Shown: piece by piece, positions 2,841 through 36,839 of the stretch | How the letters are laid out: the number at the start of each line of letters is the position of its first letter | Position numbering within the stretch: the stretch's first letter is position 1 | IMG/VR virus record: IMGVR_UViG_3300037511_000504 | Location: 1 to 47,174 of that record | Reading direction: 5' to 3' (one strand) | Length of the DNA: 47,174 bases | Origin: a virus | Lineage: Duplodnaviria; Caudoviricetes | Position numbers and translations under genes: made by a program | The notes under the pieces: model-generated | The model's input: the letters and a program-made list of their open reading frames with translations, nothing else | Told to the model about the DNA's origin: nothing | Database searches by the model: none

Positions 2841-3016
2841 AGCAGACCTAAGGCCTTCCTGGCCTTCCAGCCCTGGAGGTTAGTGACGGTGCGCCGCGTC
2901 TCCTCGTCCCACCACTCGCGGATGGGCGGAACGCTCTCCAGGCCCCTGGGCGCGAAGAGTTTCTTGCAGAGTTCATCGATGGCCTGCTGCTTCGTGGCCC
3001 CACGCGCCAGTCTCAT
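2837..3016 (-). CDS. Hypothetical protein (59 aa)
   Basis: ATGA overlaps with both neighbours; start at 3016 preferred over 3223. Confidence 0.55.
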   Translation of the reverse strand: MRLARGATKQQAIDELCKKLFAPRGLESVPPIREWWDEETRRTVTNLQGWKARKALGLL

Positions 3017-3192
3017 GAGCGTCTCCGGATGATGATGGCCACACCGTCGCGCGGCCACAGCGGTCGTATCATGCTCAGTGCCGCTCGAAGATGCGCGCGC
3101 GCATAGTCTAGATGCAGGGGCCTGGTGATGGTGGTTCGTGTTCGTGTTCGTGGCCCAGGCCCACTGCTCCTCACCTCGATGTCGAGCCTCAC
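3013..3192 (-). CDS. Hypothetical protein (59 aa, not in the ORF track)
   Basis: GTG at 3192 overlaps the upstream stop (GTGA) and the TGA overlaps the ATG at 3016. Reads VRLDIEVRSSG...IIIRRRS. Confidence 0.5.
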   Translation of the reverse strand: MRLDIEVRSSGPGPRTRTRTTITRPLHLDYARAHLRAALSMIRPLWPRDGVAIIIRRRS

Positions 3193-3407
3193 GCCGCCAC
3201 CCCCATCCTCTGCGCGCGCTCACGCTGCCAGTCCCGGAACACGCTCAGGCCGATGAACGCCGCCGCGCCCTTCAGCGAGCGGAGGATCTTCTCCCAGTCG
3301 CTCAGGCATGAGGCACAGTGCGGCTCATGTATCCTCCCACCGAAGCTGATGTGCCCACTGCTCCTCGGCCAGTCACACGCCGTGCATCGTCTCTGCTGGA
3401 ACCTCAT
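3189..3407 (-). CDS. Small CxxC-CxxC zinc-ribbon protein
   Basis: CTAC and CASC motifs, GGAGG SD, coupled to neighbours. Confidence 0.6.
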   Translation of the reverse strand: MRFQQRRCTACDWPRSSGHISFGGRIHEPHCASCLSDWEKILRSLKGAAAFIGLSVFRDWQRERAQRMGVAA

Positions 3408-7119: not shown

Positions 7120-7409
7120 GACACATCCTCCGGCAGCACGTATCGCCCGTTCTTCACGAACTCGCGCGCGGCCCATGGGCGCTTGTAGTGGACATTCACC
7201 ATGAAGCCCTGGGACCCCAAGCACAGGAACCCTCTCGGACTGTCACATTGCGGGCACGACACGAGCACGACGCAAGGGTGTGTCTTGACCCAGGCGCCGC
7301 GGATGTGAGGATGCGGCACGAAGGCCACAGCTGGCCCGAGGTAGACGCGCTTGATCTTCTGCGCGGGCCGCTCTAGCCGCTCCTCTTGGAGGTCGTGCTT
7401 AGGCAGCAT
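7116..7409 (-). CDS. Hypothetical Cys/His (zinc-finger-like) protein
   Basis: TGATG coupling to the Cro-like gene; CPQC...C...H. Confidence 0.55.
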   Translation of the reverse strand: MLPKHDLQEERLERPAQKIKRVYLGPAVAFVPHPHIRGAWVKTHPCVVLVSCPQCDSPRGFLCLGSQGFMVNVHYKRPWAAREFVKNGRYVLPEDVS

Positions 7410-7615
7410 CAGGCGTGCTCGGCAACGGGCAGTCGATACGTCTCTCGCTCCGTCACAGCGCCATGCGTAACGCGCGAGATGCGCTCCATATACCCGGTGC
7501 TCGGCTGGGTGACGCGGCGCTCCCACTTCGAGTAGAGGGCCTGTTCTGCACCGATCTTCTCGGCCATCGTCTCCTGGGTCCACCCCTTAGAGAGGCGAAA
7601 TTCCTTAAGCGTCAT
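7409..7615 (-). CDS. Cro-like Xre/HTH_3 regulator
   Basis: 68 aa, LKEFR...WTQETMAEKIG.EQALYSKWER..TQP; first gene of the leftward replication operon. Confidence 0.88.
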   Translation of the reverse strand: MTLKEFRLSKGWTQETMAEKIGAEQALYSKWERRVTQPSTGYMERISRVTHGAVTERETYRLPVAEHA

Positions 7616-7621
7616 GGCGAA

Positions 7622-7660
7622 AGAATGGCACTTGACTAGTCAGTCCGTCAAGTGCATTGT
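7622..7660. promoter_or_regulatory. Overlapping divergent promoters within a palindromic operator
   Basis: Perfect IR GCACTTGAC-N10-GTCAAGTGC (7628-7655) gives TTGAC -35 boxes on both strands, with CATTGT / CATTCT at -10 spacing. Confidence 0.65.
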
Positions 7661-7682
7661 TTGGCGCACGAACGGAGGTTCC

Positions 7683-7865
7683 ATGGCGAAGAGACATCGG
7701 TGGGACAAGAGCAAGCGCACGACATGGCCGCTAACCTGCCTCGATTGTGGGTGCACGGGCCGCGTGAAGGCGGGGACCGCCGGCACCATGGAGTACAAGG
7801 CGAAAAACAGCCCCGATTGGTGCTGGACCCCTCGCGCCACGTGCTCCACCAGGAAGAAGGTCTGA
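7683..7865 (+). CDS. Small Cys-rich hypothetical protein
   Basis: GGAGGTTCC immediately before ATG 7683; CLDCGC. Confidence 0.6.
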   Translation: MAKRHRWDKSKRTTWPLTCLDCGCTGRVKAGTAGTMEYKAKNSPDWCWTPRATCSTRKKV

Positions 7866-7866
7866 C

Positions 7867-8079
7867 ATGGCCGCGACGCTGAAGTGGGACGGAGACGAGC
7901 TGAAGTTGGGCGCCACGAAGATGGCGGAGATGTTCACGTCGCAGAAGAACGGAGCGCCGTTGTACTTCTACGTCCTCGGCCCTCGCGACACTATGTCGGA
8001 GCCGTACCAGTCCAAGGACGACGCCCGCCAGGACTGTTTCAACGAGGTGCAGCGCCTGCTGAGGAAGGCGGGGGTCTGA
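7867..8079 (+). CDS. Hypothetical protein
   Basis: Tightly packed in the operon with coding-like composition. Confidence 0.65.
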   Translation: MAATLKWDGDELKLGATKMAEMFTSQKNGAPLYFYVLGPRDTMSEPYQSKDDARQDCFNEVQRLLRKAGV

Positions 8080-8080
8080 G

Positions 8081-9100
8081 GTGGGGACCGATTCCAAGAT
8101 CGAGTGGACGCACCACACGTTCAACGCGTGGCTCGGGTGTGTCAAGGTGCACACAGGCTGCATGAACTGCTACGCCGAGACGTCGCAGGCCGTCGTCATG
8201 CGCAAGGGCGGGCGCATTCGCTGGGGTAATGTGTGGCAGGGGGGTGATCGCGCTGTCGTAGCTGACTCGACCTGGGCCAAGCCGCTCTCCTGGGCCCGCG
8301 CGGCAGCGAAGGCCGGGGAGAGGCACCGCGTCTTCTGTGAGTCCGAATCCGACGTGCTGGAGGTTCCACGCCTGCCCGAAACTTGGCCGAGAGGCTGGGA
8401 CGAGAAGCAGAAGGCCTGGGCTACTGAGCGCGTGGAGCGCATCGGCGCGGAACTCACCGCGGCCCGCGAGCGCCTCTGGGACATCATCAGGAAGACGGCT
8501 GCGATTGGTTGGACCGGGGTGGCCATCGCCGATCAGGTGCTCTGGCAGACGGCCCCAGGGCTGGATTGGCTCCTCCTCACGAAGCGGCCAGAGAACTGGA
8601 GGTTAGTACCCGAGGATGTTCGCCCGCTCGTGTGGTTCGGGACGAGCGCCAGCGACCAGGAGACGTTGGACAGCGCATGCTCGCGGCTGGTGGCCACCAC
8701 TGGCTTCCGGCTCACGTTCCTCTCGCTGGAGCCGATCGTGGGCCCCGTCGACCTTTCGAAGTGGCTGCCGTCTGCGGATGGCTTCTATGAGACGCCAGAT
8801 GGCCCTGTGCACAGGCGAGACTGGCCGGCCTGTCCATTCCCAGGCTGGATCATTCTCGGCGGCGAAAGTGGGCCAAGGGCTCGCCCATGTGCCGAGGAAT
8901 GGATCCAGAGCGCCGTGAAGCAGGCGAGCGACGGCGGCGTGAACGTGTTCGTGAAGCAAATGGGATCGGCGTGGGCGGACGCGAGTGGAGCCCTGACGTT
9001 CAACGACAAGGGCGCGGCAGTGCCAGACCGCAAGGGCGGGGACGCAAAGAACTGGCCCAAGGACATCCGCGTCCGAGACGTCCCAACCCTCACCCGCTGA
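8081..9100 (+). CDS. DUF5131 (phage Gp37/Gp68) family protein, three-Cys radical-SAM-like motif
   Basis: SKIEWT..TFNAWLGCVKVHTGCMNCYAE, LLLTKRPE, FLSLEP, WIILGGESG, VFVKQMG. Confidence 0.93.
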   Translation: MGTDSKIEWTHHTFNAWLGCVKVHTGCMNCYAETSQAVVMRKGGRIRWGNVWQGGDRAVVADSTWAKPLSWARAAAKAGERHRVFCESESDVLEVPRLPETWPRGWDEKQKAWATERVERIGAELTAARERLWDIIRKTAAIGWTGVAIADQVLWQTAPGLDWLLLTKRPENWRLVPEDVRPLVWFGTSASDQETLDSACSRLVATTGFRLTFLSLEPIVGPVDLSKWLPSADGFYETPDGPVHRRDWPACPFPGWIILGGESGPRARPCAEEWIQSAVKQASDGGVNVFVKQMGSAWADASGALTFNDKGAAVPDRKGGDAKNWPKDIRVRDVPTLTR

Positions 9101-9177
9101 AACCACAAGAGGAACATGAGCACCGACCACCAACCCGAGAACCCGGTTCGACTCCGGGCCGCGCCATGGAGGTTCTG

Positions 9178-9411
9178 ATGCAGGGCAAGAGGGCAGCAGT
9201 CATTCCGGTCGAGGTCGGGCAGGTCCGCGAGGCTGAGCAAGCTCCTGAGGTTCGTGCTCGGGGTGTTGTGAGACCAGATGCTGTGAAGGTGCTTCAAGTG
9301 GTAGGGCCATGGTCGCGCGTACGACGTGGCACCACACGCTCATCCTGGATCCGAACCGAGAACGTGGAGAAGAGGTTCCCCATCGTGGTGTCTGCGAGGC
9401 ATGAGGAATGA
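9178..9411 (+). CDS. Hypothetical protein
   Basis: GGAGG SD; stop overlaps the start of the YqaJ gene. Confidence 0.5.
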   Translation: MQGKRAAVIPVEVGQVREAEQAPEVRARGVVRPDAVKVLQVVGPWSRVRRGTTRSSWIRTENVEKRFPIVVSARHEE

Positions 9412-10382
9412 GCCACACAGTTGGCGGCACACTCGCGGCGCAGATCTGCGGCGTCTCGCGGTATGGAGGCCCGCTCAGCGCGTACTTCCAGCTAACGGCG
9501 GACGTCCAGGCTGAGCGCAACGCGGCAATGGGACGGGGCGTTGTGCTGGAGGAGAGCGTGCTCGCGATGATGACGCAGCAGCTCGGAGGTACGATCTGTC
9601 CCGCCCGCACCGTGACGAGCACCGCCATGCCGCACGCCCATGCAACCCTGGATGCTCTGTGGGTGCCGGATGGCGGCGAACGGGCGGACAGCGGCGTGCC
9701 ATGGACCATCCCAGATGCCAAGACCGCCAACGCCGAGGGGATGGGCGAGGACTGGGGTCCGGACGGATCGGACCAGATCCCCCAGGAGTACCAGGTCCAA
9801 CTCCAGTGGTACCACGGCGTGTGCCGGGCGGCCGGCATGAACGTGGCCGACGAGGCGCTGCTCCCCACTCTGGTAGGGCCCGAGGCCGAGCTGCAGTGGG
9901 CCGCGCGGCTGGTGCAGGCGGCCGTCCGTCCGCTGCGGCGCGCGGACCTGGAGGACACGGGGCTGGAACTCCGGGTGTACCGCGTGGAGTGGGACCCTGA
10001 GGCCTTCCGGCTCATGGACGAGCGGGTGCGCCGCTTCCTCCGGGAGCACGTGGTGCCACGGGTGCCGCCCGAACCCGGGGCCGGAGACCTGCTCGATCGC
10101 GACCTCCGGGCGGTGGCCAAGGGCCTGAAGGCCGAGCCCGGGCGTCTGCTGGACCTGGATCGCCTACCGCCCGCAGAGCAGGCGCTGGTGCTGGACCTTC
10201 TCGACGCCAACCGCCAGCGCAAGGCTTGGGCCGAGAAGGAGGAGCAGGCAGCCGCCCGCGTGCGCCTCCTTATGGCCACGGCTGAGGAGGTGCGTGGGTT
10301 GCCGGGTGGCGCGCGGGTGACATGGCGCGACCGTCAGACTGGTCGTGTATTCAAGGTCGAGGAACCGAGAGGGAGGAAGTGA
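9408..10382 (+). CDS. YqaJ/lambda-exonuclease family recombination nuclease
   Basis: VGGT.AAQICGVS, GRG..LE, HATLD, DAKT, IPQEY.VQLQWY; close to RecT. Confidence 0.85.
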   Translation: MSHTVGGTLAAQICGVSRYGGPLSAYFQLTADVQAERNAAMGRGVVLEESVLAMMTQQLGGTICPARTVTSTAMPHAHATLDALWVPDGGERADSGVPWTIPDAKTANAEGMGEDWGPDGSDQIPQEYQVQLQWYHGVCRAAGMNVADEALLPTLVGPEAELQWAARLVQAAVRPLRRADLEDTGLELRVYRVEWDPEAFRLMDERVRRFLREHVVPRVPPEPGAGDLLDRDLRAVAKGLKAEPGRLLDLDRLPPAEQALVLDLLDANRQRKAWAEKEEQAAARVRLLMATAEEVRGLPGGARVTWRDRQTGRVFKVEEPRGRK

Positions 10383-10753
10383 TGGGATACGACACGGCAA
10401 ATGAGGAGCTGAAGAAGATTGTGGGTTCCACGGTGAAGGGGCTGGAGGACAGCGGGGACATGACGCTACTGCTAGAGGACGGGCGGCGCGTGCGGATGAC
10501 GCTGACCGGGGACTGTTGTTCGTCGTCCTCATTCACCGAACCCAAGCAGTTTCAGGAACTGGTGGGAGCAACCATCCTGGAGGCCGAGGATCGGGACGGT
10601 CAGTCCGACAACAACCTGCCGGAGCCGGAAGGTTCTGACGTCATCTCCTGGCACTTCCTCGTCTTCAAGACCAATAAGGGCCACGTCACCATCGACTGGC
10701 ACAACGACAGCAACGGCTACTACGACGGCAACCTGTCCGTGGAGATTACATGA
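10382..10753 (+). CDS. Conserved phage hypothetical protein (DCC / SNGYY type)
   Basis: GDCCS and SNGYYDG motifs; strong SD. Confidence 0.75.
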   Translation: MGYDTANEELKKIVGSTVKGLEDSGDMTLLLEDGRRVRMTLTGDCCSSSSFTEPKQFQELVGATILEAEDRDGQSDNNLPEPEGSDVISWHFLVFKTNKGHVTIDWHNDSNGYYDGNLSVEIT

Positions 10754-11688
10754 CGACCGACACGAAGCTGGCGACGCGAGCGCCCAGCCCCATCGAAGGG
10801 TGGAAGGCCGAGCTGTACCACGAGAAGACGCTGAGCAACCTAAGCAAGGCTCTCATGGGCACAGGCTATGCGCCTGAGCGGTTCGCCCACACGGCCTATA
10901 TGCTCGTGGCCAAGAACCCCAAGCTGCTGGTGAACAAGACCCAGCTTTGGCTCGGTGTGTACGCCGCCGCCGAGTGCGGGCTCTCGCTCCAGACGCACAT
11001 GCAGCAGATGTTCCTCGTCCCATTCGGCAAGGAGGTGACACCGATCATCGGGGCGCAGGGGTTCGTCTACCTTATTGGGAAGGCAGGCCTGGGGCTCCTC
11101 AACCCGCCCGTGCTGGTGTTCCAGCGCGACATTGACGAGCACCGCTTCAAGTACCGGCAGGGGACGCGCGCCATCTGTGACCTGGATCCCGTGGTGCGAG
11201 ATCCCAGCCGCCCCAAGGGAGAACTCCGGTATGCCTTCGCCGTGTACGAGGCAGCCAACGGGCGCAAGACATTCAAGTGCATGGACCGGGCGGAGATCCT
11301 GGAGATCCGCGACGGCAGCAAGGGCTGGAAGGCCTACAAGAACGGGCGCGCCTCCCAGAGCACGTGGGAGGCCACCACCCTGCCGGATGGCTCCGAGGGC
11401 GGCAACTTCCTGCCCATGGCGGCCAAGACGGTGATCCGGCACTTCGCCAAGGTGTTGCCCAAGAGTACCGACCACTGGGGCGAGCGGGCGGCCAAGGCCG
11501 AGGCGGTGGAGGCGGCGCTGGACGGGCAGCCCACGGACGCGCTCGACGACGTGCTGGACGTGACGGTGGAGCAGGAGGCCCAGAAGACGGCCAACGACAG
11601 GCTCAAGGAGACTTTGCGCAGCAACGAGCCCAGCGCCGAGGAGCAGGCCGAGATCCGCCGCCTGGAGATGGAGGCCTCGAAGCAGTAG
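10750..11688 (+). CDS. recT: RecT-family single-strand annealing protein
   Basis: AAECGL, FLVPFG...IIGAQG, MAAKTVIRH..K.LPKS. Confidence 0.88.
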   Translation: MTTDTKLATRAPSPIEGWKAELYHEKTLSNLSKALMGTGYAPERFAHTAYMLVAKNPKLLVNKTQLWLGVYAAAECGLSLQTHMQQMFLVPFGKEVTPIIGAQGFVYLIGKAGLGLLNPPVLVFQRDIDEHRFKYRQGTRAICDLDPVVRDPSRPKGELRYAFAVYEAANGRKTFKCMDRAEILEIRDGSKGWKAYKNGRASQSTWEATTLPDGSEGGNFLPMAAKTVIRHFAKVLPKSTDHWGERAAKAEAVEAALDGQPTDALDDVLDVTVEQEAQKTANDRLKETLRSNEPSAEEQAEIRRLEMEASKQ

Positions 11689-11751
11689 GTAACCAAGCCT
11701 GTCGCAGTCCGTTAGGAGTACATTCACTCGCAGCACCAGAAAGGCAGTGTC

Positions 11752-12192
11752 ATGACCGAGAAGGCGTTGAATGTGGCGAGTATGGAGGACCTCAAGACGA
11801 AGGCGCCCGGGACGGAGGTGTTTGGCAACCCCGGAGCGTGGGTGTTGCTGGGGAAGGCCTCCAACACGGAACAGGGGTGGATGAAAAGCACCAAGGCGAT
11901 GCAGACACCGGTGGGGGTACTCATCCAAACATCAACGGAGAAGAGGAATCCGGACGGCTCGTGGTCCATCTGCGACGCGCTCACGGAAGTGCGCGGGGCA
12001 GCGCTGCGACAGGTGAATGGCAACCACTGGGAGTTCTCCACCGACGCTGGAGCCTCAAAGGTCCGGACCGCCCTCGCCGCTATGAAGTCCTGCATCCTCT
12101 CCGGCGAGCCCTGGACGCAGGATATGCAGAGCGCTCTTGACACCGCCAATCATGAGCTCCTCGCCATTGAGGCCCTCGGCTCGAAGCAGTAG
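11752..12192 (+). CDS. Phage hypothetical protein
   Basis: GWMKSTKAM...GVLIQTST; coding-like composition. Confidence 0.7.
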   Translation: MTEKALNVASMEDLKTKAPGTEVFGNPGAWVLLGKASNTEQGWMKSTKAMQTPVGVLIQTSTEKRNPDGSWSICDALTEVRGAALRQVNGNHWEFSTDAGASKVRTALAAMKSCILSGEPWTQDMQSALDTANHELLAIEALGSKQ

Positions 12193-12223
12193 ACAGCCGC
12201 CGCCGCCCGGCATACATAAGAGG

Positions 12224-12318
12224 GGCTGGCCCGGACGGTAGAGTCTGGAACCTCCTCCCTCCACCAGTTGAAGGGCCCTCGCTCTTGCCCCCACGGAGCC
12301 TGGGCCCTTCGTCTTTTC
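12224..12318 (+). ncRNA. Candidate anti-RBS sRNA
   Basis: TAGACA-17-TACATA promoter (12190-12218); stems GGCTGG/CCAGTT and CCGGAC/GTCTGG; tract TGGAACCTCCTCCCTCC; terminal hairpin plus U-tract. Confidence 0.5.
12270..12318 (+). terminator. Intrinsic terminator-like hairpin
   Basis: GAAGGGCCC...GGGCCCTTC stem with inner GCTC/GAGC, followed by GTCTTTT. Confidence 0.6.
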
Positions 12319-12357
12319 TGGTGCCGTGGTAACCTCTTGGAGTCCTTGGAGGAAACC

Positions 12358-13059
12358 ATGCCCGACGTACAGATGCAGCCCATCCCCGTCCGCAAGCCCA
12401 GGAGCCGCACCAGGCGTGCGCTTGAGGGTACCGCCGTAGCCATTGTCCTTCTTGGTGGGCTGGAGGTGGCTCTCCACACCGTCGCCCAGGGAGCGGTGAG
12501 CCCGGAGGTGAAGCTGTGGGCCCAGGCGCTCTCCCTTGGCATCGGTGCCGTGGTGGCGGCACTGAGGGGCAGTGGCATGCTGGGCGGGTTGATGCTGGCA
12601 GTCCTTGCCTGGGGCATCTCCTCGCCTGTCAACGCCGCAGACCGCTACCGCTCCTATTCCGTGACGCTGGCGAGTGCGGCATGCCCCTCTGGCGCGCCAG
12701 GCCTCATGAGCGATGCGAAGGAGCCTGGCCTATCGATGGGCGGGCTACGCGCCTGGAACGTGACGATTCTGGCGCCGCCTGGAGAGACCTTCACTGGAAC
12801 GGGCCTGCTCCGGGTGTGCGTATTCCGTCGCTCGCCCGGCGGGCCGGACCTGTGGGTCCCGTCGCCAACGTTCGCTTGGGACTTTTCCGATGACGGATTC
12901 GGGAATCCGATCACGGGCACCCGCGCGACGTTCCAGGACATCACGATTGGCGTGAACGATGGGGATCTGGTGTACGTGTACCCGGAGACCACCCTCGGCG
13001 TGAGCGCCGGCACCACCGTGAGCGTCTACCTGGAGGGCCAGCTCAATGCGACGCCTTAG
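12358..13059 (+). CDS. Membrane/exported protein: two hydrophobic helices, a signal-like segment and a beta-rich domain
   Basis: GGAGG SD; hydrophobic N-terminus; VNA|AD putative cleavage site. Confidence 0.65.
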   Translation: MPDVQMQPIPVRKPRSRTRRALEGTAVAIVLLGGLEVALHTVAQGAVSPEVKLWAQALSLGIGAVVAALRGSGMLGGLMLAVLAWGISSPVNAADRYRSYSVTLASAACPSGAPGLMSDAKEPGLSMGGLRAWNVTILAPPGETFTGTGLLRVCVFRRSPGGPDLWVPSPTFAWDFSDDGFGNPITGTRATFQDITIGVNDGDLVYVYPETTLGVSAGTTVSVYLEGQLNATP

Positions 13060-13615
13060 TCTGCTGGCGGCGCTGCTGGCGCTGCCTGCCATGGGGCAGG
13101 GGTACCTCCCCCAGCGTGGCGTCCTGCTTTCTGCTGACGACGTGGACAGGGCGCTCACCGGCCAGAGTCTGTCTCTGCGCTCGCTGGTACTCGTGGGCAC
13201 GGGCAGCAGCACCTCGGACACGCTGGTCATCCTGAGTGGGCGGATCCGCATGGCACCCAACACAGTGAACGGCAACGCGCTCTTCTACTTCAACTCCAAT
13301 GGCTTCAACATCGACAACCAGCTCAACATCGCGGCTGGCGCGGCGGTGCTAGTGGACTACGTGGTGCCGCGCCAGAACTCCATCCCTGTCTCGCTGGGGG
13401 ACTCTGACGGAACCACGTTTGCGCTCCAGGCCTCTCCAGGGACGTGTGACGCCGCTCACAAGGGGGCCGTCGTCGGCGTCTCGGAGTCCGCCTCCAGCGC
13501 CACACGGCTCTGCCGCTGCATCCTCACTGCGTCCGGCGGCAACTACCGCTGGCTGAATATGGACAACTCCACGCGTGGAACCACCACCACCGACTGCCCG
13601 GATACAACCCCATGA
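13046..13615 (+). CDS. Exported fibre-like beta protein with a Cys-containing C-terminal knob
   Basis: Signal MRRLSLLAALLALPAMG; beta-rich body; TCDAAHKG...LCRC...YRW...C. Confidence 0.6.
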   Translation: MRRLSLLAALLALPAMGQGYLPQRGVLLSADDVDRALTGQSLSLRSLVLVGTGSSTSDTLVILSGRIRMAPNTVNGNALFYFNSNGFNIDNQLNIAAGAAVLVDYVVPRQNSIPVSLGDSDGTTFALQASPGTCDAAHKGAVVGVSESASSATRLCRCILTASGGNYRWLNMDNSTRGTTTTDCPDTTP

Positions 13616-14220
13616 GACACATCCCACTGCTCATGCTGCTCCTCGCCTCGCTGGCCGTCGCCTCGCCCAAGCGCGCCTACGTCGCGATGGGAGACTCCAT
13701 CACCAACGGCCACGCCTTCGACGCCAGCACCTACCCTGCTCGCCTGGAGGCGCTGCTTGGCGTCCCAGTCGAGAACATGGGGGTCGGCGGCGAGCTGGCA
13801 GCCAGCATCAATACCCGCTTCACCGCTTACGTTCTGCCGTACCCGTACAGGGGTGTGATCTTCGAGGAGTGTATCAACGACCTGATTGCGGGCACCTCAG
13901 GCGCAACGTGCTGGACGGCGACCCAGGCAGCCGCCGATGCAGCCCGAGCGGCTGGGATGACGGTTGTGTTGGTGACGGCCATCCCGTGCGGGAACTACGC
14001 ACCGTGGAACGGAACGAAGGAGACGCAGCGCGACGCCTACAACACCGCGCTCCGCGCCTACGTCGCCGCCCACCCGAGCGACACCTTCCTTGTGGACCTC
14101 GACCTGGTAGTGTCTGACGACACGGACACGATCAAGGCCGCCTACGACTACGGCGAGGGCCTGCACCTGAACGGCGCCGGGTTCCAGGCGGTGGCAGAGG
14201 CCATCGACGACGTGATCTGA
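13612..14220 (+). CDS. SGNH/GDSL esterase with a Sec signal peptide
   Basis: GDSIT (block I), NMGVGG (II), IND (III), EGLHLN (V); signal MRHIPLLMLLLASLAVA. Confidence 0.9.
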   Translation: MRHIPLLMLLLASLAVASPKRAYVAMGDSITNGHAFDASTYPARLEALLGVPVENMGVGGELAASINTRFTAYVLPYPYRGVIFEECINDLIAGTSGATCWTATQAAADAARAAGMTVVLVTAIPCGNYAPWNGTKETQRDAYNTALRAYVAAHPSDTFLVDLDLVVSDDTDTIKAAYDYGEGLHLNGAGFQAVAEAIDDVI

Positions 14221-14223
14221 GCC

Positions 14224-14538
14224 TCACGGCCCTGGGGAAGGCGTGTCCAGAGGGGTGGTGAGGCGCTGGGCCTTGCGCTCGAGCCGACGCACCAGCACCT
14301 CGAGCGATCGACGCAGAAGCCTGGAGCGAGCACGGACTGGAGCCACGGCATTGAAGCGGTCCAGTATCGCCTGCTCAACGAGCAGCTCCACCCGGGCCTC
14401 CTTCTTAGGGCCCCTGGGCGGCACCCCCGCCTTCCTCCGACGCTCGGCCGAGTAGTGCGCCTGGCACAGCCCGCGGGCGATCACCACTCCGGGGCACCCC
14501 GCCTCTCCAGTGCAGTTCTTGATGCCGGGCTGGCTCAC
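14224..14538 (-). CDS. Small Zn-finger plus ribbon-helix-helix-like DNA-binding protein
   Basis: C....GC.....RGLC.AHY followed by RVELLV...RSRLLRRSL; GTGA coupling. Confidence 0.55.
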   Translation of the reverse strand: MSQPGIKNCTGEAGCPGVVIARGLCQAHYSAERRRKAGVPPRGPKKEARVELLVEQAILDRFNAVAPVRARSRLLRRSLEVLVRRLERKAQRLTTPLDTPSPGP

Positions 14539-15905
14539 GGCGCTGCTCCTTCGATGGCGGCCTTGAGCACTGGTAGAAGCCCGTGTGCCCCGGCGATGGT
14601 CGCCACACGCTGCACGGCCTTCAAGCACGCCGAGCGCATGGCCTCGGCGCCTTGCTCGAAGCACCCGTCCTGATAGGCCACCTCCAGCGGCCCTTCTGGG
14701 AGTGGCTGATCATCCTCGCCGGACCACAGAACAACACCCGGCGTCTCCTCGGTTGGTGGCGTGAGAGCGAGGCCCGTCACCGCCTCGCTTCTCTGCTTCA
14801 CCCTCTCGGGATGGCCAGGAGTGGCGGCGTCATCGTGGGTGCAGGTTGGGGAGCATGGATGGCGCGCCGCCACGGGCTCCAGGTTCAGCTTCTTGGCGAG
14901 CACGCACCGCCACCCCTCGACCAACCCAGCGGCGCCACGACACGAACCGACGCACGTGCACTCCCTACGCGTGTCCTTCGCCTCTTGCGGCGAGTCGCCT
15001 TCCAGAATCCATCGGGCAAGGGCATCATCCGCTCCATGCGCCTCGACCCAGTCCGCGATACGACCGCTGGCTACCCTCTCCCGGATGGCGGCGAGGCGGG
15101 ACTCGGCGGCACGGAGCATATCGCCAGCCTTCTCCGCCGTCTTGACCATGAGGCGCCTGCCCGTCTGCGCTTCATCAAGTTCGGCCTTCAGCCTCTCCAC
15201 CTCGGCCCGGGCGGTGTCGCGCTCAGTAGTCAGCCGCATGTTCTCGCTCATGGCGGCGGCGAGCACGCCTGTCACAGCATCAGCGGCGCCACGCCCGGCG
15301 CACGTTCGGTAGAGGTCACCAGCCACTGCCCCCAAGAGCGTCTCCTGAAGGAGGCGCGTCAGGTCCGCCTCCAACTCCGCTGCCTTGGTCCGGAGCGTCT
15401 CGGCCTCTCGCCACGCCTTGGCTGTGGCCTCACGCGAGGCTGATGTGTCGCTGGCGAGGGCGGCGAGGCGGGAGAGCGCGTCCTGCGAGTCGCTCATGGC
15501 GTCAACGTGCCTGGGGTGGATGCCGAGCTTTTCGCGAAGCCTCGCAAGATCGCGACGAAGGAGGGCCTCGTCCTCCGCAACCTGCCCCGAGGGCTTGAGG
15601 CGGGAGAGTTCGGCCTCCAGTGCGGCCACTCGGGCGCCTTGGGCCTCCGCATGCCCCAGCAGCTCAGCTTGCTCCGTCTTCGAGAGGCCATCCGCCAAAA
15701 TCCTGGCGTTGAAGATACTGAGCCGCGCAGACGTAATCGCACCACCACGCCCGGCAGCTAGCGACACGGCGCGCGTCATGATGGCGCGCACCACGGCTGG
15801 CGGCAGGTCCTCGAGGTCGGGGCCAAGGCGGATGTCTTTTGGCTGCTCCTGAGTATCAAGGCCCGCCCGAGTTGCGTCCTCTACCTCTTTCTCGCTCCAG
15901 TTCAT
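14535..15905 (-). CDS. Modular coiled-coil hypothetical protein
   Basis: Heptad-rich; shares a segment with 28859-30193. Confidence 0.7.
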   Translation of the reverse strand: MNWSEKEVEDATRAGLDTQEQPKDIRLGPDLEDLPPAVVRAIMTRAVSLAAGRGGAITSARLSIFNARILADGLSKTEQAELLGHAEAQGARVAALEAELSRLKPSGQVAEDEALLRRDLARLREKLGIHPRHVDAMSDSQDALSRLAALASDTSASREATAKAWREAETLRTKAAELEADLTRLLQETLLGAVAGDLYRTCAGRGAADAVTGVLAAAMSENMRLTTERDTARAEVERLKAELDEAQTGRRLMVKTAEKAGDMLRAAESRLAAIRERVASGRIADWVEAHGADDALARWILEGDSPQEAKDTRRECTCVGSCRGAAGLVEGWRCVLAKKLNLEPVAARHPCSPTCTHDDAATPGHPERVKQRSEAVTGLALTPPTEETPGVVLWSGEDDQPLPEGPLEVAYQDGCFEQGAEAMRSACLKAVQRVATIAGAHGLLPVLKAAIEGAAP

Positions 15906-15906
15906 G

Positions 15907-16095
15907 TCACTTCACTCCCTTGTCCTTGAGGAACTGTTCGTAGGCGGCAGCAGCAGCAGCTCGGGCTCGCGTTTCCTGGGCCTCGGAGTCGCGCCAGGCT
16001 CTCTCCATCACAGAGCGCATCTCTGGACTGAGCGCGTCATGGCGGGGTGCCCCGTGCCCGCGCTCGTCCGGATAGCTGGGGTGCCGTCGCCTCAC
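15907..16095 (-). CDS. Hypothetical protein
   Basis: GTG at 16095 overlaps the upstream stop; the end supplies the SD of the next gene. Confidence 0.45.
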   Translation of the reverse strand: MRRRHPSYPDERGHGAPRHDALSPEMRSVMERAWRDSEAQETRARAAAAAAYEQFLKDKGVK

Positions 16096-16814
16096 GGCTC
16101 CGCCCCGAAGGCGGACACCTGCTCGACGAGGCGCTCGACGTAGTGTGCCAGGATGGCACGCGACGGCCATTCGGCGTCCTGCTCCGGATCTGCGGCGACG
16201 TGGCCACATGCCTTCGCGATGATCGACGACTTCCGCACGTCCATCGGGAGCGCGAGGAACGCCGCATGCCCCGCCCGCTCCGCCCGAGCCATGTCCGAGA
16301 GCGCGGCGTACACGGCGTCGCGTGTCCCGATCATGCCGTTGTAGTGCGCTGCCATGAGGAGGCCCGCTCGTTCCGATGTTGTCGGTGAGCGGCCCAGCAC
16401 CAGCGCCTTGATGAGCGCCCAGCGGTCGCGGCAGAAGGACGCACGCTCCTCGTTGGCCACCTCGTCTGCCCATGGGCCCTGCCGACTTGCTGGGACGAGC
16501 GCCACATCTGTCACGTCGCTCCCCTCCCACGTCTTCCCGGAGATGGAGCAGTAGACCTTCACGAGTCGGGCGGGACAGCCATTGAGGTGTGGCGGGTTGT
16601 TGCCTGGTTCTGCTTCGTCGGCGCACGTGCACTCCCCTAGCAATCCCCCGAACATGGCGGAGCGCGGGATGGGGCAGGGGATGAGGACGGGCTCACAGAC
16701 ACATGTCGTCGGGCCAGCGCCTCCAGCGAGCCATCGCTGGTAACCACACGAACATGTGGCTAGGTTGACGTTGATGGTCGGGATGGTGTGGGGCGTCTCA
16801 TTCCAGCTGGGCAT
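16092..16814 (-). CDS. Cys-rich hypothetical protein
   Basis: AGGAGGTTCCA immediately upstream of ATG 16814. Confidence 0.65.
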   Translation of the reverse strand: MPSWNETPHTIPTINVNLATCSCGYQRWLAGGAGPTTCVCEPVLIPCPIPRSAMFGGLLGECTCADEAEPGNNPPHLNGCPARLVKVYCSISGKTWEGSDVTDVALVPASRQGPWADEVANEERASFCRDRWALIKALVLGRSPTTSERAGLLMAAHYNGMIGTRDAVYAALSDMARAERAGHAAFLALPMDVRKSSIIAKACGHVAADPEQDAEWPSRAILAHYVERLVEQVSAFGAEP

Positions 16815-16844
16815 TGGAACCTCCTGGGAACCGCGCGTATATGA

Positions 16845-16871
16845 CATTATCCGGGTTGTAAGGCAAGAGTT
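16845..16871 (-). promoter_or_regulatory. Conserved leftward promoter/operator element, copy 1
   Basis: CATTATCCGGG-N6-GGCAAGAGTT, also present at 19156-19182; TTGCC -35-like box on the minus strand. Confidence 0.6.
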
Positions 16872-17216
16872 GCTAGCGGCGACAAGGTCGCGGACACGGC
16901 TGGGTGCAGAGCCCGTAGGCGAGCACGCTTCCGCCGGAGAGCAGCCACGCGAGACCGCGCCCGTCAGGGGGCTTCATCAGGCAACGTGGGCGAGGCGCGC
17001 CAATCTCGATGTTCAGCGCGTTGGCCGGGCGTCGCGGGGTCCGCTCCTCTCTGCGTTGGTCGCACCCGGCGGCGAACTCACCGTGCGGCTCGTCTTGCCA
17101 TTGCCATGCAGGGACGGCCGACCGCCACTCGACCGTGCGCGGATGATGCTCGCCAAGCACGTCTCGGCTGTGGAGGTACATCGAAAGGGCGGAAGGCATG
17201 GGAGACGCCTATGAGA

Positions 17217-17450
17217 CTACGGGCACTGGCATGGAAACTGGGAGCAGCCGGGACAGGGTTCCAACTCCAGCGCCGGGTGGACGAGGATGGGCTCTTCCTC
17301 TGGCGCCAGGTAGAGCTCCACCGACTCCTGCTCAAGCGTCGCGCGGAGCTGCAAGTCCATGAGGACGGAGGAGCGGAACGAAGCGCGCGTATCGTGGTCG
17401 AGCGCATCCCAGAAGTAGCGGGCCTCTTCGGAGAGGAGGATGGCGGTCAT
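17217..17450 (-). CDS. Hypothetical protein
   Basis: ATGA coupling; C-terminal CPGC..CQC. Confidence 0.5.
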   Translation of the reverse strand: MTAILLSEEARYFWDALDHDTRASFRSSVLMDLQLRATLEQESVELYLAPEEEPILVHPALELEPCPGCSQFPCQCP

Positions 17451-17785
17451 TGATCGTCGACCTCGACCTGGTCCGCATCGATGTGTATGCCGCAGCCGGC
17501 GCAGCAGAAGGACAGGTTGGCGCCAGTACCGCCGTTGTCATCGTGCGGACCGACGTTGCCGCAGTCGGGGCAAGGGAAGCGACCGGTGAGATGGGCATCG
17601 AAGAGGCGTGCGGCACTCTGGATGGGCGTGGGGGGCATGCTGGACTCCTTCTTGAGCCGTGAGGGATTGAAGATGGCGCGGATGGTCACCCGCTCGCGCG
17701 GGCAGTCAGAGAACGTGTTGAAGACGAAGGGAGGGGTTCGGAGCAGCAAGAACCCGTCACGCGGGATGGAGATGATGCGCGGCAT
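17447..17785 (-). CDS. Hypothetical Zn-ribbon protein (start uncertain)
   Basis: CPDCG...CAGCG. Confidence 0.5.
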   Translation of the reverse strand: MPRIISIPRDGFLLLRTPPFVFNTFSDCPRERVTIRAIFNPSRLKKESSMPPTPIQSAARLFDAHLTGRFPCPDCGNVGPHDDNGGTGANLSFCCAGCGIHIDADQVEVDDQ

Positions 17786-17787
17786 GG

Positions 17788-18102
17788 CTACCTCACCACC
17801 AACGGGTTATCGCCCCAGGAGCCTGCATCCACCCGGCGGAACGCCTCGCCATTGAGCCGGAGCAGGACCCGTTCCCAGGTGAAACGGCTCTCGTCCCCGT
17901 TCATCCATGGTCGGCGCTTGGCGCGCACCTCCGCGAAGGTAGCGCGCTCGATCATCGTCCTGATCTGGCGATTGGACAGACCCCGAAGGAGACGCGCGTC
18001 TCGGCAGTCCTGGCAGTGCGCGCCGGGCTCTGTGACATTGAAGCACTCGTCCGTCTCGCAGTATGCGAGCCTCTCGGGCAGGTTAGGTGCGTTCCCGGCC
18101 AT
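17788..18102 (-). CDS. Hypothetical protein
   Basis: GGAGG SD; Cys cluster. Confidence 0.55.
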   Translation of the reverse strand: MAGNAPNLPERLAYCETDECFNVTEPGAHCQDCRDARLLRGLSNRQIRTMIERATFAEVRAKRRPWMNGDESRFTWERVLLRLNGEAFRRVDAGSWGDNPLVVR

Positions 18103-18105
18103 GGC

Positions 18106-18309
18106 TCAGCCCTCCCCGAGGGTGGAGATCTGCGAGTTGAGTCGGGACACGAGCCCCTCGAAGTACACGGCGCGGTCGTTGTAGTGGCGCGCGGTGTTCG
18201 GGGCGATGGGGCGGACGCGCGCGGCGGCGCTCTGGAGGGAGGCGACAAGGGCGCGGGTCTTCGAGCGCTCGGAGGGGAGTGCGGCAAAGCGGGAAGGAAC
18301 GGCGGTCAT
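18106..18309 (-). CDS. Hypothetical protein
   Basis: GAGGTTCC RBS. Confidence 0.6.
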   Translation of the reverse strand: MTAVPSRFAALPSERSKTRALVASLQSAAARVRPIAPNTARHYNDRAVYFEGLVSRLNSQISTLGEG

Positions 18310-18336
18310 GGTTGGAACCTCGGTGCTGCGGGTGGA

Positions 18337-18516
18337 CTACTTGGGCCATGCGTTCAGGCCCAACAACGCTCCGCACTGGGCAAGGTGGAAGCGGGCGGCC
18401 TCGATGCAGACACGAGCCCTCCGATAATCTCGCGCGGCCCTGTGCATCAGGGCCTGCGCGTAGAAGGCCTGAGCGCGGAGCAGTTCGTTTGTCGCGCGAC
18501 CGTAAGGCAGTGACAT
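18337..18516 (-). CDS. Hypothetical protein
   Basis: GGAGGTTCC RBS before ATG 18516. Confidence 0.55.
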   Translation of the reverse strand: MSLPYGRATNELLRAQAFYAQALMHRAARDYRRARVCIEAARFHLAQCGALLGLNAWPK

Positions 18517-18582
18517 GGGCGGAACCTCCAACTTCGGGTGAAGCATGGGCCCCCGGGCTCTCACGTGCGGGGGCAGGACGGG

Positions 18583-18813
18583 CTACTCCTCCGGGGTGAA
18601 CCAACCCGGGGCAGTGGCGCTCAGCATCTCATGCACGCCCTTCAGTGCGGAGTAGACGCGCAGTACGTCCACATCATCCAGCGTGAGTTGTTCAGTGTGG
18701 TGGCCACCCGGCCCCGTGAACAGCAACTCCGCCTTGCGAGACTCGCGGTCAACGTCGACTTCGACGGTGCCTCCGGCCTTCAGGTCGATTTTACTGAACA
18801 GCTTCATCGCCAT
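18583..18813 (-). CDS. Hypothetical protein
   Basis: GAGGTTCC RBS before ATG 18813. Confidence 0.6.
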   Translation of the reverse strand: MAMKLFSKIDLKAGGTVEVDVDRESRKAELLFTGPGGHHTEQLTLDDVDVLRVYSALKGVHEMLSATAPGWFTPEE

Positions 18814-18888
18814 GTGGAACCTCATGCTGCGTGCGGAGCCCACCCGCGTGAGGGCTGGTGACCCACGAAACCCATGGGTCAGGGCGAA

Positions 18889-19122
18889 CTACTGGGCGCT
18901 GTCGATGATGCGGCGAATCTCAGCGTCGCGAGCCTCAGGGCTCATCTCGGCGAGGTCCTGAGCCAACTCAAGCCACGCCTGCTGACGAATCTCCCCAGCA
19001 CGCATCCGCCCGGCGCAGAGCGTGGCCACCTGCTCCCTCAGGCGCTCGTTTGCGCGAGCCAGTTCGGTGTACGTTTGGCCAGAAGCGGGGGTGTTCAGGA
19101 AGGAAGCGAAACCAGGCATCAT
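18889..19122 (-). CDS. Hypothetical protein
   Basis: GGAGGTTCC RBS; first gene of the leftward small-gene operon. Confidence 0.6.
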   Translation of the reverse strand: MMPGFASFLNTPASGQTYTELARANERLREQVATLCAGRMRAGEIRQQAWLELAQDLAEMSPEARDAEIRRIIDSAQ

Positions 19123-19155
19123 GGAACCTCCGAAGCAGCGTTGAGCTACTGTAAC

Positions 19156-19201
19156 CATTATCCGGGCATCACGGCAAGAGTTTCGTGTAGATTTCACGAA
19201 A
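19156..19201 (-). promoter_or_regulatory. Conserved promoter/operator element, copy 2, plus adjacent palindrome
   Basis: CATTATCCGGG-N6-GGCAAGAGTT (19156-19182) and TTTCGTG-N7-CACGAAA (19181-19201) in an AT-rich divergent gap. Confidence 0.6.
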
Positions 19202-19247
19202 TAATTTTGGGACCATGGCGCCTCACCCGCAGCACCGAGGTTCCAAC

Positions 19248-19520
19248 ATGGCACGACAGCAGAGCAACTGGGCAACCATCAGCGCGAAGCGGCGCATGGG
19301 GCGCAACGGCTCGGAGGAGGCAGAGCCCAAGGGCATCGAGTTGGGCAAGGGTTCGTTCGTGCTCACGCAGGGACTGAGGGGCGCGGCCCGGCTCGAGGCG
19401 TACCTGTCCCAGCCGCTGGTGCCGCTGCCGGATCCCGTGGACATGCTGGGCGAGCAGCTGGCCCTCACCCCCAAGGAGCAGTGGTTGAGGGACATTCTCG
19501 GCCCATACAAGCCACTGTAA
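19248..19520 (+). CDS. Hypothetical protein
   Basis: GAGGTTCC RBS before ATG 19248. Confidence 0.6.
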   Translation: MARQQSNWATISAKRRMGRNGSEEAEPKGIELGKGSFVLTQGLRGAARLEAYLSQPLVPLPDPVDMLGEQLALTPKEQWLRDILGPYKPL

Positions 19521-26805: not shown

Positions 26806-28865
26806 AATCTGAGCCCGCCGTCTACTTCGCCAACCTGGAGGGCCGCGAGCTCACCGCCGCGCTCATGGACAGAGTGAAGACGTACCAGACGCACATCATC
26901 AACAGCGGCTACTGGTACCTCGGGGCCAAGTCCGTCCAGTTCACTAAGGGCCTGGACAGCCGCGGCTACTCCTCCATGGAACTCCGCCGGCGCGGCCCGC
27001 GCGGTGAGTACACCGGCGTGAAGGTGCCGCAGTACGCCAGCCTCTTCATGACCTTCATGAGCCAGCTCACCGGCCAGCGCATCGTCTTCGAGCCAAAGCC
27101 TGGCTCCGAGGACTGGCAGGCCAGCGAGCAAGCCAGGAGGGCCAAGGGCGTGCTCACGGACGCCTTGGACAAGGGCCTGGAGGCGGTGCTGCTCAAGGCC
27201 TCCCACATCTCAGCGAAGCAGGGCATGGCCTGGACGGCGGTGGATTTCGATCCCCACGCCGGCCCCGCCGCCATCCCGGATCCGGAGACCGGCGCACCCA
27301 TTCGCTCGGGAGAGATGACGCACCGAGCCTACGGCCCAGGGAACTGCGCCTTCGACATCGAGGCGCGCGGCGAGGCGGACGTGCACTGGGTGGTGCTCAA
27401 GCGCTGGGAGGTGGCGCACGATCTCGCGGCCTCCTTCCCCGACAGGGCGGATGAGATCCTCCGCGCCGTGGGCGGCAGTGACGTGGACGGCGAGACGGAC
27501 ATGCAGGACATCGTCCTCCAGGGCCATCGTGGCGCCGGATTGCAGCGCGGGCGCGTGGCTGTCTATGAGTTCCGGCACGACGCCACACCAGCCTGTCCGG
27601 CCGGCCGGATCGCCTGGTTCCTTGGTACCGGAGAGCTCCTCTTCGCCGATGAACTGCCCTTCATGGACGAGAGCGGGCACAGGCGTATGTGCGTGCGCCG
27701 ATTCGCCCTCCTCGACATCGACGATACGGCGTTTGGCTTCAGCCCCATGTGGCTCCTGATGGCAATGCAGGAGACGCTGGACATGCTCAAGTCCATCGAG
27801 GTGACGAACTACCGAGCGCACGGCGCGGGCGTCATCCTCAACCCCCGCGGCTCGGACATCACCCCCCGGAAGATCGCCGCGGGCCTGAGTGTCATCGAGC
27901 ACACCCCGGGGCTGGAGCCCAAGGCCCTCAACTTCACCACCCAGCCCCCGGACTTGGCCGGAAGCCAGGAGCGCACGGTGGAGACGATGAGGACGACGAT
28001 CAACGTCTCCTCCATCGCACAGGGCGCCCCGCCCGCCTCGCTGAAGTCCGGCTCCGCCCTGCTCTTCGTCCAGGCCACCACCGCGCAGGGCATGCAGCTG
28101 TACCTCAACCAGATGGCGGCCCATCATGAGGGCGTGGCCTCGGACTACCTGCTGGTCTTCTCCATCTTCGTCCAGCTTGAGCGGGCAGTAACGGTGTCCG
28201 GGGAGGCGTCCGACCGTATTGACATGGTGCGCGGGGTGGACGTGGCTGGCATCTCCAAGGTGAAGCTGGATCTGGGGAACCCTCTCACCCGATCTCTCGC
28301 TGGACAGGTGCAGATCGGCCAGGACCTGCTCACCCAGCAGCTCGTCACGAAAGAGGAGTACCTGGAGATCGTCAACGGCGGCGGCATCCAGAAGATCCTG
28401 GACCCGGCCACCAAGCGCGGCATCCTGGTGGAGCAGGAGAACGCCATGCTCCGTGAGGGCAAGGTGCCGCTCGTGAGCCCCACGGATCTGCACCCGTACC
28501 ACATGCAGCGGCACGCCGCGGAACTGGACAGCCAGCAGGCCCGGCTGAACCCAGCCATCCGCTCCGCCGTGCTCCAGCACCTGCGGCAGCACCACCAGGC
28601 CTGGATGCAGGCCACGATGATGAACCCGGGGCTCCTGGAGGGCCTGAACATCCCGCTCATGCAGACGGCCATGGGGATGATGGGCGCACCGCCCCCAGGG
28701 GCTCAAGGCGAGGACGGCGGCGCCGCGCCAGCGGCCCTCTCCGGCAACGCCTTCGACGGACCCCCGGACGGCGGGCGGATGCCGAGCCCCCCACGCCTTC
28801 CTCCCGGTGCGGCTATGGCGACGGGTCAGAACCCCGCCGCGCCGGGGCCGGGTGGGGCTCAGTGA
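26802..28865 (+). CDS. Portal protein
   Basis: Follows TerL; ~687 aa; SGSAL motif and Gln/Pro/Gly-rich tail typical of P22-like portals. Confidence 0.8.
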   Translation: MKSEPAVYFANLEGRELTAALMDRVKTYQTHIINSGYWYLGAKSVQFTKGLDSRGYSSMELRRRGPRGEYTGVKVPQYASLFMTFMSQLTGQRIVFEPKPGSEDWQASEQARRAKGVLTDALDKGLEAVLLKASHISAKQGMAWTAVDFDPHAGPAAIPDPETGAPIRSGEMTHRAYGPGNCAFDIEARGEADVHWVVLKRWEVAHDLAASFPDRADEILRAVGGSDVDGETDMQDIVLQGHRGAGLQRGRVAVYEFRHDATPACPAGRIAWFLGTGELLFADELPFMDESGHRRMCVRRFALLDIDDTAFGFSPMWLLMAMQETLDMLKSIEVTNYRAHGAGVILNPRGSDITPRKIAAGLSVIEHTPGLEPKALNFTTQPPDLAGSQERTVETMRTTINVSSIAQGAPPASLKSGSALLFVQATTAQGMQLYLNQMAAHHEGVASDYLLVFSIFVQLERAVTVSGEASDRIDMVRGVDVAGISKVKLDLGNPLTRSLAGQVQIGQDLLTQQLVTKEEYLEIVNGGGIQKILDPATKRGILVEQENAMLREGKVPLVSPTDLHPYHMQRHAAELDSQQARLNPAIRSAVLQHLRQHHQAWMQATMMNPGLLEGLNIPLMQTAMGMMGAPPPGAQGEDGGAAPAALSGNAFDGPPDGGRMPSPPRLPPGAAMATGQNPAAPGPGGAQ

Positions 28866-30193: not shown

Positions 30194-30255
30194 GTCGGAA
30201 CCTCCGCGCACACCGCCATGGCGTGCTGAGAGGCTTATACCACAGGGAGGAAACC

Positions 30256-31299: not shown

Positions 31300-31445
31300 G
31301 AGTTGCAAATGACCGTAGGTCAACGGTAGGGTTGTGCCTGTAGGCCCGAAGGCAGTACCCGGACCGGAGTCCCGCTGGGACCAGACCGGAGAGGGGAACG
31401 GAAGGCCAGAAGCCCCTTCTCTTCTCTTTCTCTGGAGTCCCAGCG

Positions 31446-36231: not shown

Positions 36232-36654
36232 TCATGCAGCCCCTGAGATCTCGCCAAGCGCGGCCTTCCCGTCCTGGCGTCGCCTGTCACAGGTCCGGCA
36301 GATGGTCCGCCGCTTGCGCCAGAACTTGAGGTTGTCCAGCGTGGTGGTCATCAACTCGTCCACTGGCTTCATGCAGTACGTGAGGCGCGGCCCCTCGCCC
36401 GGGGAGAACCGTATGTGCACATCGTCCTGGGTGGCCTCCTCCTTCGTCGCCGCCTCGGGGCTCTTGGGCACGAACACGTACTCGTTGGGCCGTCCCCACT
36501 CGGACACACGGATGACCTTCGTCCGCCTACCCGTGGTGATGTTCTCCATCATCACCGTCCAGGGATCCGACGCGTCAGCGATACGGCGCACCGCTTTGTC
36601 GTGCTTCGTGTTCTGCCAGTGCTGACCAACCTCGGGGCGCGGCGAATGCTTCAC
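36232..36654 (-). CDS. Hypothetical protein
   Basis: GTGA coupling; C-terminal CRTC. Confidence 0.6.
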   Translation of the reverse strand: MKHSPRPEVGQHWQNTKHDKAVRRIADASDPWTVMMENITTGRRTKVIRVSEWGRPNEYVFVPKSPEAATKEEATQDDVHIRFSPGEGPRLTYCMKPVDELMTTTLDNLKFWRKRRTICRTCDRRRQDGKAALGEISGAA

Positions 36655-36839
36655 GACGCCCTCCGTGCGGCCACGGCACCTGCGAGCGACTCGTACCGCG
36701 CGGCGGCCTTCACCTGCCCGAGCGCGTGATCCATCGCGTACTTCACATGCACCAGCCGCTCATCGAGCGGGTTCGGCGTGGTGGTGGGCATCTTGCGCGC
36801 GAGTGCTTCGAGAGCTGCGCTGAATTCCTGCCATGTCAT
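36651..36839 (-). CDS. Hypothetical protein
   Basis: GGAGGTTCCA RBS before ATG 36839. Confidence 0.6.
   Translation of the reverse strand: MTWQEFSAALEALARKMPTTTPNPLDERLVHVKYAMDHALGQVKAAARYESLAGAVAARRAS

Follow-up and report, generated by a model that had tools for sequence, protein, structure and literature searches.

The window, meaning the whole stretch of DNA analyzed here, is a complete soil phage genome; it measures 47,174 bp, carries direct terminal repeats and has 66.8% G+C. One soil metagenome run contains it in a single contig and may be its source. Gene content was assigned with Pfam and PHROGs for 72 main ORFs and with PHROGs for another 26. The genome contains a leftward replication block, a 68-aa HTH gene (7409-7615), a rightward operon (7683-12192) that encodes DUF5131, RecE and RecT, a group of small genes without assigned function (14224-19520) and a separate structural block. 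The rightward operon is followed by a gap, and a 233-aa gene lies downstream of it. The gap holds a candidate promoter, a tract antisense to the RBS motif of the phage's own genes and an intrinsic terminator (Table 1). No integrase was found in the 72 ORFs with Pfam and PHROGs or in the 26 others with PHROGs; thus, a lysogenic state is not evident. The same searches of the same ORFs found no antirepressor family, though remote homologs could escape them, and no tRNA was found. Other repeats in the window are three 270-nt units in a probable tail or decoration gene (33299-34174) and a 67-nt duplication, 84% identical, between two leftward genes of ~450 aa (15603-15669 versus 29747-29813).

None of the isolate phages is close to the window. 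BLAST of positions 10000-15000 against them returned nothing, and the gap alone gave only matches of E 2-6. The top isolate match of the replication protein is Mx8 p19 (51% over 30%), and a second gene in the window has a weak Mx8 match. The 3' arm of the gap terminator matches an intergenic hairpin of Myxococcus phage Mx4 at 25 of 28 nt (E 2; Mx4 46459-46486). The Mx8 matches and the Mx4-like terminator arm suggest that the host is probably a member of the Myxococcota.

The gap had been described as ORF-free. No gene was called in it, but it is crossed by three minus-strand open frames of 140-160 aa. These frames gave no PHROG match and have no start signal, and a minus-strand protein gene across the gap was rejected on these grounds. 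The promoter-like element TAGACA-17-TACATA reported in the earlier note is present, though weak: a strict sigma-70 scan returned 0 promoters, and the candidate fails that scan. Its -35 hexamer TAGACA may correspond to a Myxococcus -35, the final base of its -10 is A, and its TAG doubles as the stop codon of the upstream gene. The candidate resembles others of its family, such as TTGACA-17-CACATT, TTGACG-17-CATGTA and TTGCCT-17-CATATA. The terminator expected after the tract was borne out by its stem, tail and folding score, and the stem forms with a pair probability of 1.0 for all nine 5' ends tried. An antiterminator was rejected because the stem forms at this probability whichever 5' end is used. 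A second terminator-like hairpin lies at 42183-42214 and has 15 nt (42200-42214) in common with the 3' arm of the gap terminator. Rfam gave no match at gathering and only chance-level matches at E ≤ 10 in positions 12000-12500.

Table 1. Features of the gap, the extended RBS motif and the HTH gene in the window.
Feature	Position	Strand	Comment
Cro/CI-type HTH gene, 68 aa (gene 7409-7615), candidate protein repressor	7409-7655	-	Likely leaderless
Motif RBS, first gene of the rightward RecE/RecT operon	7674-7683	+	Motif also here in relative L008
9-bp match to the 3' half of the tract, start of gene 10382	10369-10377	+	
146-aa ORF with flanking 13-nt direct repeat (11676-11688, 12180-12192)	11676-12192	+	Absent in the X3 strain
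Candidate sigma-70-type promoter TAGACA-17-TACATA, weak -10	12190-12218	+	Fits a relaxed family pattern drawn post hoc
Predicted small RNA, ~95 nt	12224-12319	+	5' end placed from the -10 box; z -2.8, mostly from the terminator
Predicted irregular 5' hairpin, loop UCUGGAAC	12224-12269	+	Exposes motif-specific seed, part-masks generic anti-SD bases
Antisense tract TGGAACCTCCTCCCTCCA, exact reverse complement of the extended RBS, one CCTCCTCCC inside	12246-12263	+	
Intrinsic terminator, 9-bp stem GAAGGGCCC/GGGCCCTTC (12270-12278/12302-12310) and U-rich tail	12270-12319	+	z -4.1
Motif RBS, 11-bp match, gene 16092-16814 behind TTGCCT-17-CATATA	16815-16825	-	
Motif RBS of gene 18106-18309	18313-18321	-	
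Motif RBS of gene 18337-18516	18521-18529	-	
Motif RBS of gene 18583-18813	18815-18823	-	
Motif RBS of gene 18889-19122 behind TTGCCG-18-TACAGT	19122-19131	-	
Motif RBS of gene 19248-19520	19237-19245	+	Within the 24-nt inverted copy of leader 18311-18334
Motif RBS, leftward gene 28859-30193 (an insertion within the structural region)	30197-30205	-	
Motif RBS of leftward gene 36651-36839 behind TTGACG-18-CACCGT	36843-36852	-	
Motif RBS, 11-bp match, 871-aa virion structural protein	38418-38428	+	Misfit with an early-only regulon

The core of the extended RBS motif, GAGGTTCC, occurs 15 times on the two strands of the window against a Markov expectation of 1.8-3.9. Ten copies are at gene starts (10 of 70 called translation starts), four are sense-oriented within coding regions, and one is antisense and non-coding (12254, minus strand). 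TTCC follows GAGG at ten starts and every other 4-mer does so at most twice. The commonest 8-mers at starts in the window are GAGGTTCC, AGGTTCCA and GGAGGTTC. In the control phages Mx8, Mx4 and Mx9 (the first 50 kb each of Mx4 and Mx9), every 8-mer was limited to at most 4 of the 84-90 annotated starts, which indicates that start-motif enrichment is not general to myxophages. Nine of the motif genes are not identified as structural and one is the virion gene, whose homolog in the relative L005 has no motif upstream.

Candidate sigma-70-like promoters of the TTGAC/TTGCC type precede 4 of the 10 motif genes by 51-55 nt, in a pattern drawn post hoc. The association compares with 1 of 60 other genes, the HTH gene included, and because the pattern is post hoc no p-value is claimed. 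The motif is found again behind TTGAC promoters in relatives with ~45-55% protein identity, at two sites in L005 and one in L008. The L008 copy stands before the gene that opens the rightward operon, a different gene from the one in that place in the window. This recurrence behind promoters points to the motif as a trait shared across the family by genes that are promoter-proximal and probably early. Near-motif sites before an ATG at 9168-9180 and 3386-3405 suggest two more motif-type starts outside the called set. The leader at 18311-18334 has a perfect 24-nt inverted duplicate at 19224-19247 that includes the RBS motif, and the pair could recombine the 889 nt between them. Two leftward leaders (16845-16869 and 19156-19180, minus strand) have CTCTTGCC-N8-CCCGGATAATG in common as a candidate promoter or operator motif; CTCTTGCC is found also inside the gap's terminator hairpin, at 12282.

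The single non-coding, start-less copy of the motif that is antisense to local transcription (1 of 15) is the tract in the gap. The claim that it is the exact reverse complement of the motif at ten RBSs was confirmed, with pairing of 9-11 bp. Contiguous pairing extends to at least 9 bp with 11 of 70 starts, to at least 10 bp with 5, and to 11 bp with 2. The matches that had been named by the gene starts 16814, 38430, 10382 and 41132 were located at 16815-16825 (minus strand), 38418-38428, 10369-10377 and 41120-41127. The tract is not an RBS itself, as the earlier note had also held, because no minus-strand ATG, GTG or TTG lies at RBS distance. It sits on the transcribed strand, 6 nt ahead of the terminator.

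Complementarity to starts was ranked over 91,394 18-nt windows that are not antisense to a called start. The tract ranks first, pairing over at least 8 bp with 13 of 70 starts. The windows ranked 2-6 are the antisense of sense-oriented motif copies within coding regions, and two of these copies could be starts that were not called. When the 5,195 non-coding nt were simulated with a Markov model, 13 starts were reached in 1 of 1000 runs and 10 starts in 103 of 1000. With the gap left out of model training, the expected number of matches in these 5,195 nt is 0.10-0.12 for the 8-mer, 0.02 for the 9-mer, 0.006-0.007 for the 10-mer and 0.001 for the 11-mer. Taken alone, the 8-mer core carries little weight as evidence, unlike the full tract: the simulations return the core at about 10%, and the 11-mer expectation is 0.001. 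The best non-coding windows of Mx8, Mx4 and Mx9 pair with 6-8 starts and were equalled in 5, 37 and 47 of 200 simulations, respectively. These results confirm that the antisense sequence in the gap is beyond chance.

The short 5' stems of the earlier note depend on where the RNA begins and are not significant by themselves (z -0.5; 62 of 200 shuffles fold as well). Folding was predicted for 22 5' ends at 30 and 37 °C. The UGGAAC seed is unpaired (0.97-0.99) only for 5' ends 12224-12226, for which it falls in a loop of 8 nt and the generic CCUCC bases are masked in part. The seed is predicted to be hidden (unpaired 0.34-0.41) in RNAs that begin at 12222 or further upstream, as read-through from the operon would. 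The coincidence of the open seed with the start that the -10 box would place at 12224-12226 is suggestive only.

Predicted targets were ranked over the 70 starts with opening costs counted. The top 7 of 70 are motif genes, in a ranking that is partly circular, and the predicted net binding is modest, with a motif-gene median of about -7 (-7.15) versus 0 kcal/mol. Two of the ten motif genes rank below the 18 best predicted targets. One of the two 11-bp targets is the virion protein.

At the protein level the phage belongs to a sizeable family, with 22 homologs of the 233-aa gene, 18 of the likely capsid and 29 close relatives of RecT. The 233-aa gene has no family assigned and no usable Atlas match despite its 22 homologs, and a search of metagenome, genome and viral contigs with its alignment found no locus. 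Single-protein DNA scans gave nothing or one weak match. RecT DNA scans gave L007, L008 and two weak matches, none containing the gap: L007 (RecT 49% identical) has a gene, not the gap, in the 244 nt after RecT, and the L008 contig stops inside RecT. The capsid scan gave L005, which covers the structural region only. Upstream of the likely capsid gene, a non-coding stretch (31300-31445 in the window, ~4865-4940 in L005) looks conserved, with the capsid protein 49% identical, and is a possible structured leader.

A low-depth strain in metagenome run X3 carries the gap at ~98% identity with the tract unchanged and a different upstream gene. The differences listed in the gap are at 12218, 12223 and 12287, and A12218G alters the -10. 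The X3 contig joins 11675 to 12180 across the 13-nt repeat, and the gap there directly follows RecT. The repeat that flanks the 146-aa gene includes the stop codons. The absence of this gene from the X3 strain points to its recent gain or loss. The gap goes with the downstream gene (97-100% identical) and not with RecT (86-89%). This comparison shows no selection on the gap, because the gap is no more conserved than the downstream gene.

The earlier note regarded the phage as lacking CI and saw the RNA as a possible repressor or immunity factor. The first premise is unsupported, because the Cro/CI-type HTH gene and an inverted repeat (7628-7636/7647-7655) that covers both divergent -35 boxes beside it constitute a candidate protein repressor. 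The HTH protein has no peptidase domain, is not a full-length CI, and its gene points away from the rightward operon. A role of the RNA as repressor or in immunity is likewise unsupported, since no integrase was found and a candidate protein repressor is present. In both the window and L008 (L008 911-1140), which have the same divergent layout, 7 nt separate the -10 candidate from the HTH ATG. This short distance in both phages suggests that the HTH mRNA is leaderless. A leaderless HTH mRNA, conserved in the window and L008, would be out of reach of an anti-SD RNA.

The best single reading of the gap is a trans-acting RNA on a dispersed RBS regulon, as the earlier note proposed, and it draws on the top-ranked complement, its position on the transcribed strand, the terminator and the motif genes' place as best predicted targets; the replacement of CI is the unsupported part. 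The weak host-type promoter would produce an RNA of ~95 nt that ends at the terminator, with transcription and 5' end deduced from the sequence signals. Its predicted partners in trans are the GAGGTTCC(A) RBSs of about ten dispersed, mostly early genes. Loop-first pairing through UGGAAC would favor motif genes over ordinary Shine-Dalgarno sites. The build-up of the RNA would then damp target translation and lead to a delayed shut-off of early genes. The RNA and its targets would have the same promoter class, so repression would lag. The timer version of the earlier proposal fits better than the immunity version, because motif genes tend to lead promoter-proximal early units in the window and in the two relatives L005 and L008. 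We see about an even chance that the gap encodes a trans-acting, anti-RBS antisense timer on early-gene translation.

The principal alternative treats the gap as an ordinary operon end, the terminator of the RecE/RecT operon, with the tract either matching by chance or surviving as a relic RBS from a lost cassette, leftward like those found at 30193 and 36839. Leftward motif-headed cassettes do occur among rightward genes in the window and L005, genes come and go at this spot as the 13-nt repeat attests, the promoter candidate is weak, and the 8-mer core is expected by chance in non-coding DNA at about 10%. An exact 15-mer scan of IMG/VR gave 27 viral loci that were assigned by inspection of folds and flanks to 8 cuckoo-type hairpin tips, 5 RBSs on the other strand and 14 of neither class. 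In the 5 RBS loci, GAGGGAGGAGGTTCC is a plain RBS, and a start codon follows within a few bases. There are thus precedents for a relic RBS as well as for a cuckoo-like RNA. However, neither a start codon nor a family-pattern promoter pointing leftward lies between 12255 and 12450, and the likeness of the tract to six other leftward leaders barely extends beyond the motif itself. The 11-mer with its 3' extension is rare by chance, and the tract lies inside a terminated rightward unit. We regard the operon-end explanation as unlikely overall, and as the strongest competitor of the timer.

A second alternative is a cuckoo-like general anti-Shine-Dalgarno RNA that acts mainly on host mRNAs in host shut-off, with the phage RBS match as a by-product. 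Cuckoo RNAs are described as having two to four hairpins with the motif in each loop, and as found only in Alphaproteobacteria, in the available text of the family paper (PMC4615179), in which the word 'phage' does not appear. The window resembles the family (ar14 RF02344, CcsR1 RF02791) in having CCUCCUCCC, in one copy at 12251-12259. TGGA-ACCTCCTCCC-TCCA is moreover the exact tip of cuckoo-type phage hairpins in 3 of 3 18-mer and 8 of 27 15-mer matches, and the idea that the three IMG/VR 18-mer matches were chance coding matches was dropped since they are cuckoo-type hairpins. All seven hairpin-tip loci scanned match ar14 or CcsR1 below the gathering score (E 4e-7 to 6e-3). Phage or prophage contigs with two-hairpin cuckoo-type RNAs are L001, L002, L003 (about 2990-3080), L019, L026, L029, L030 and L033; the hairpins of L001-L003 appear within an open frame. 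The gap RNA differs from the family as published (PMC4615179) in having one module, a disfavored 4-bp stem, no Rfam match and a host that is probably not alphaproteobacterial. There is only one CCTCCTCCC in the genome, no ar14 or CcsR1 match was found at E ≤ 10, and the 5' extension of the tract corresponds to the RBS spacer that the phage itself uses most often. The 4-bp stem has a probability of 0.00 for 5' ends up to 12228 and of 0.4-0.5 only for a start at 12245. The cuckoo fold was rejected because its stem has a pair probability of 0.00 at the predicted 5' end, and a cuckoo-like role for the gap RNA is improbable.

The least probable reading, and a distinctly remote one, is a cis element that acts by attenuation or RBS masking on the operon mRNA or the 233-aa gene, or a DNA or protein binding site at the inverted copy: the tract is able to pair over 6 bp with the downstream RBS, which is predicted to lie in a local hairpin in the read-through transcript, and Pope et al. 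left RNA versus protein binding by SAS open in the part of their report that bears on it (PMC3203893), but the terminator stem has a probability of 1.0 throughout so that no antiterminator is predicted, the RBS of the 233-aa gene has no TTCC motif, and a separate extended -10-like candidate, TG-TAACCT, follows the terminator. In read-through RNA, the 233-aa gene is predicted to have its RBS and start codon (12326-12361) closed in a local hairpin, and a start from TG-TAACCT would give a short open leader.

A search of the open-access literature for a characterized phage RNA that acts on many early RBSs found none. P22 Sar and P4 CI are, like c4, RNAs with one linked mRNA each. The c4 RNA of P1 and P7 blocks translation of the ant mRNA near its RBS through loop sequences and serves the immunity of a temperate phage, according to the description consulted (PMC12197685). 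The proposed timer RNA is like c4 as described there in being a predicted phage RNA against the phage's own RBS, with a pairing sequence that may lie in a loop for 5' ends 12224-12226, and unlike it in having about ten dispersed predicted starts rather than the ant mRNA, no Rfam C4 match, and no antirepressor or integrase found.

By analogy of layout, the closest published architecture is that of the cluster K mycobacteriophages, with their SAS and its single inverted copy. In the relevant sections of Pope et al. (2011; PMC3203893), SAS is a non-palindromic RBS motif of many non-structural genes that extends beyond 16S complementarity, and a single inverted, start-less copy in Anaya, Adephagia, Angelica and CrimD is described with its function left unresolved. 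The window is like cluster K, so described, in having a motif a few nucleotides before starts and one inverted, start-less non-coding copy. It differs in the motif length (8-11 versus 13 bp), in the sequence, which is not GGGATAGGAGCCC, and in the host. These sections (PMC3203893) do not present the inverted SAS copy as an RNA gene or as flanked by a promoter and a terminator, whereas the tract in the window lies between candidates for both.

A broader form of the timer proposal is that apparently lytic myxobacterial phages have standardized early promoter-proximal RBSs to GGAGGTTCC for one RNA of the same promoter class. This arrangement would be a delayed, RNA-only early-to-late switch, and would explain also the single inverted SAS copy of cluster K. 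We put this generalization forward tentatively, as possible though on balance doubtful. If the timer proposal is false, the gap is an ordinary terminator region. If it is true, a single gene would switch scattered early genes by reading a shared RBS spacer, and this would supply a testable answer to the question raised in 2011 about the role of start-associated motifs and their inverted copy. A short seed able to distinguish one class of RBS from ordinary Shine-Dalgarno sites could be used as a gene-control part in myxobacteria.
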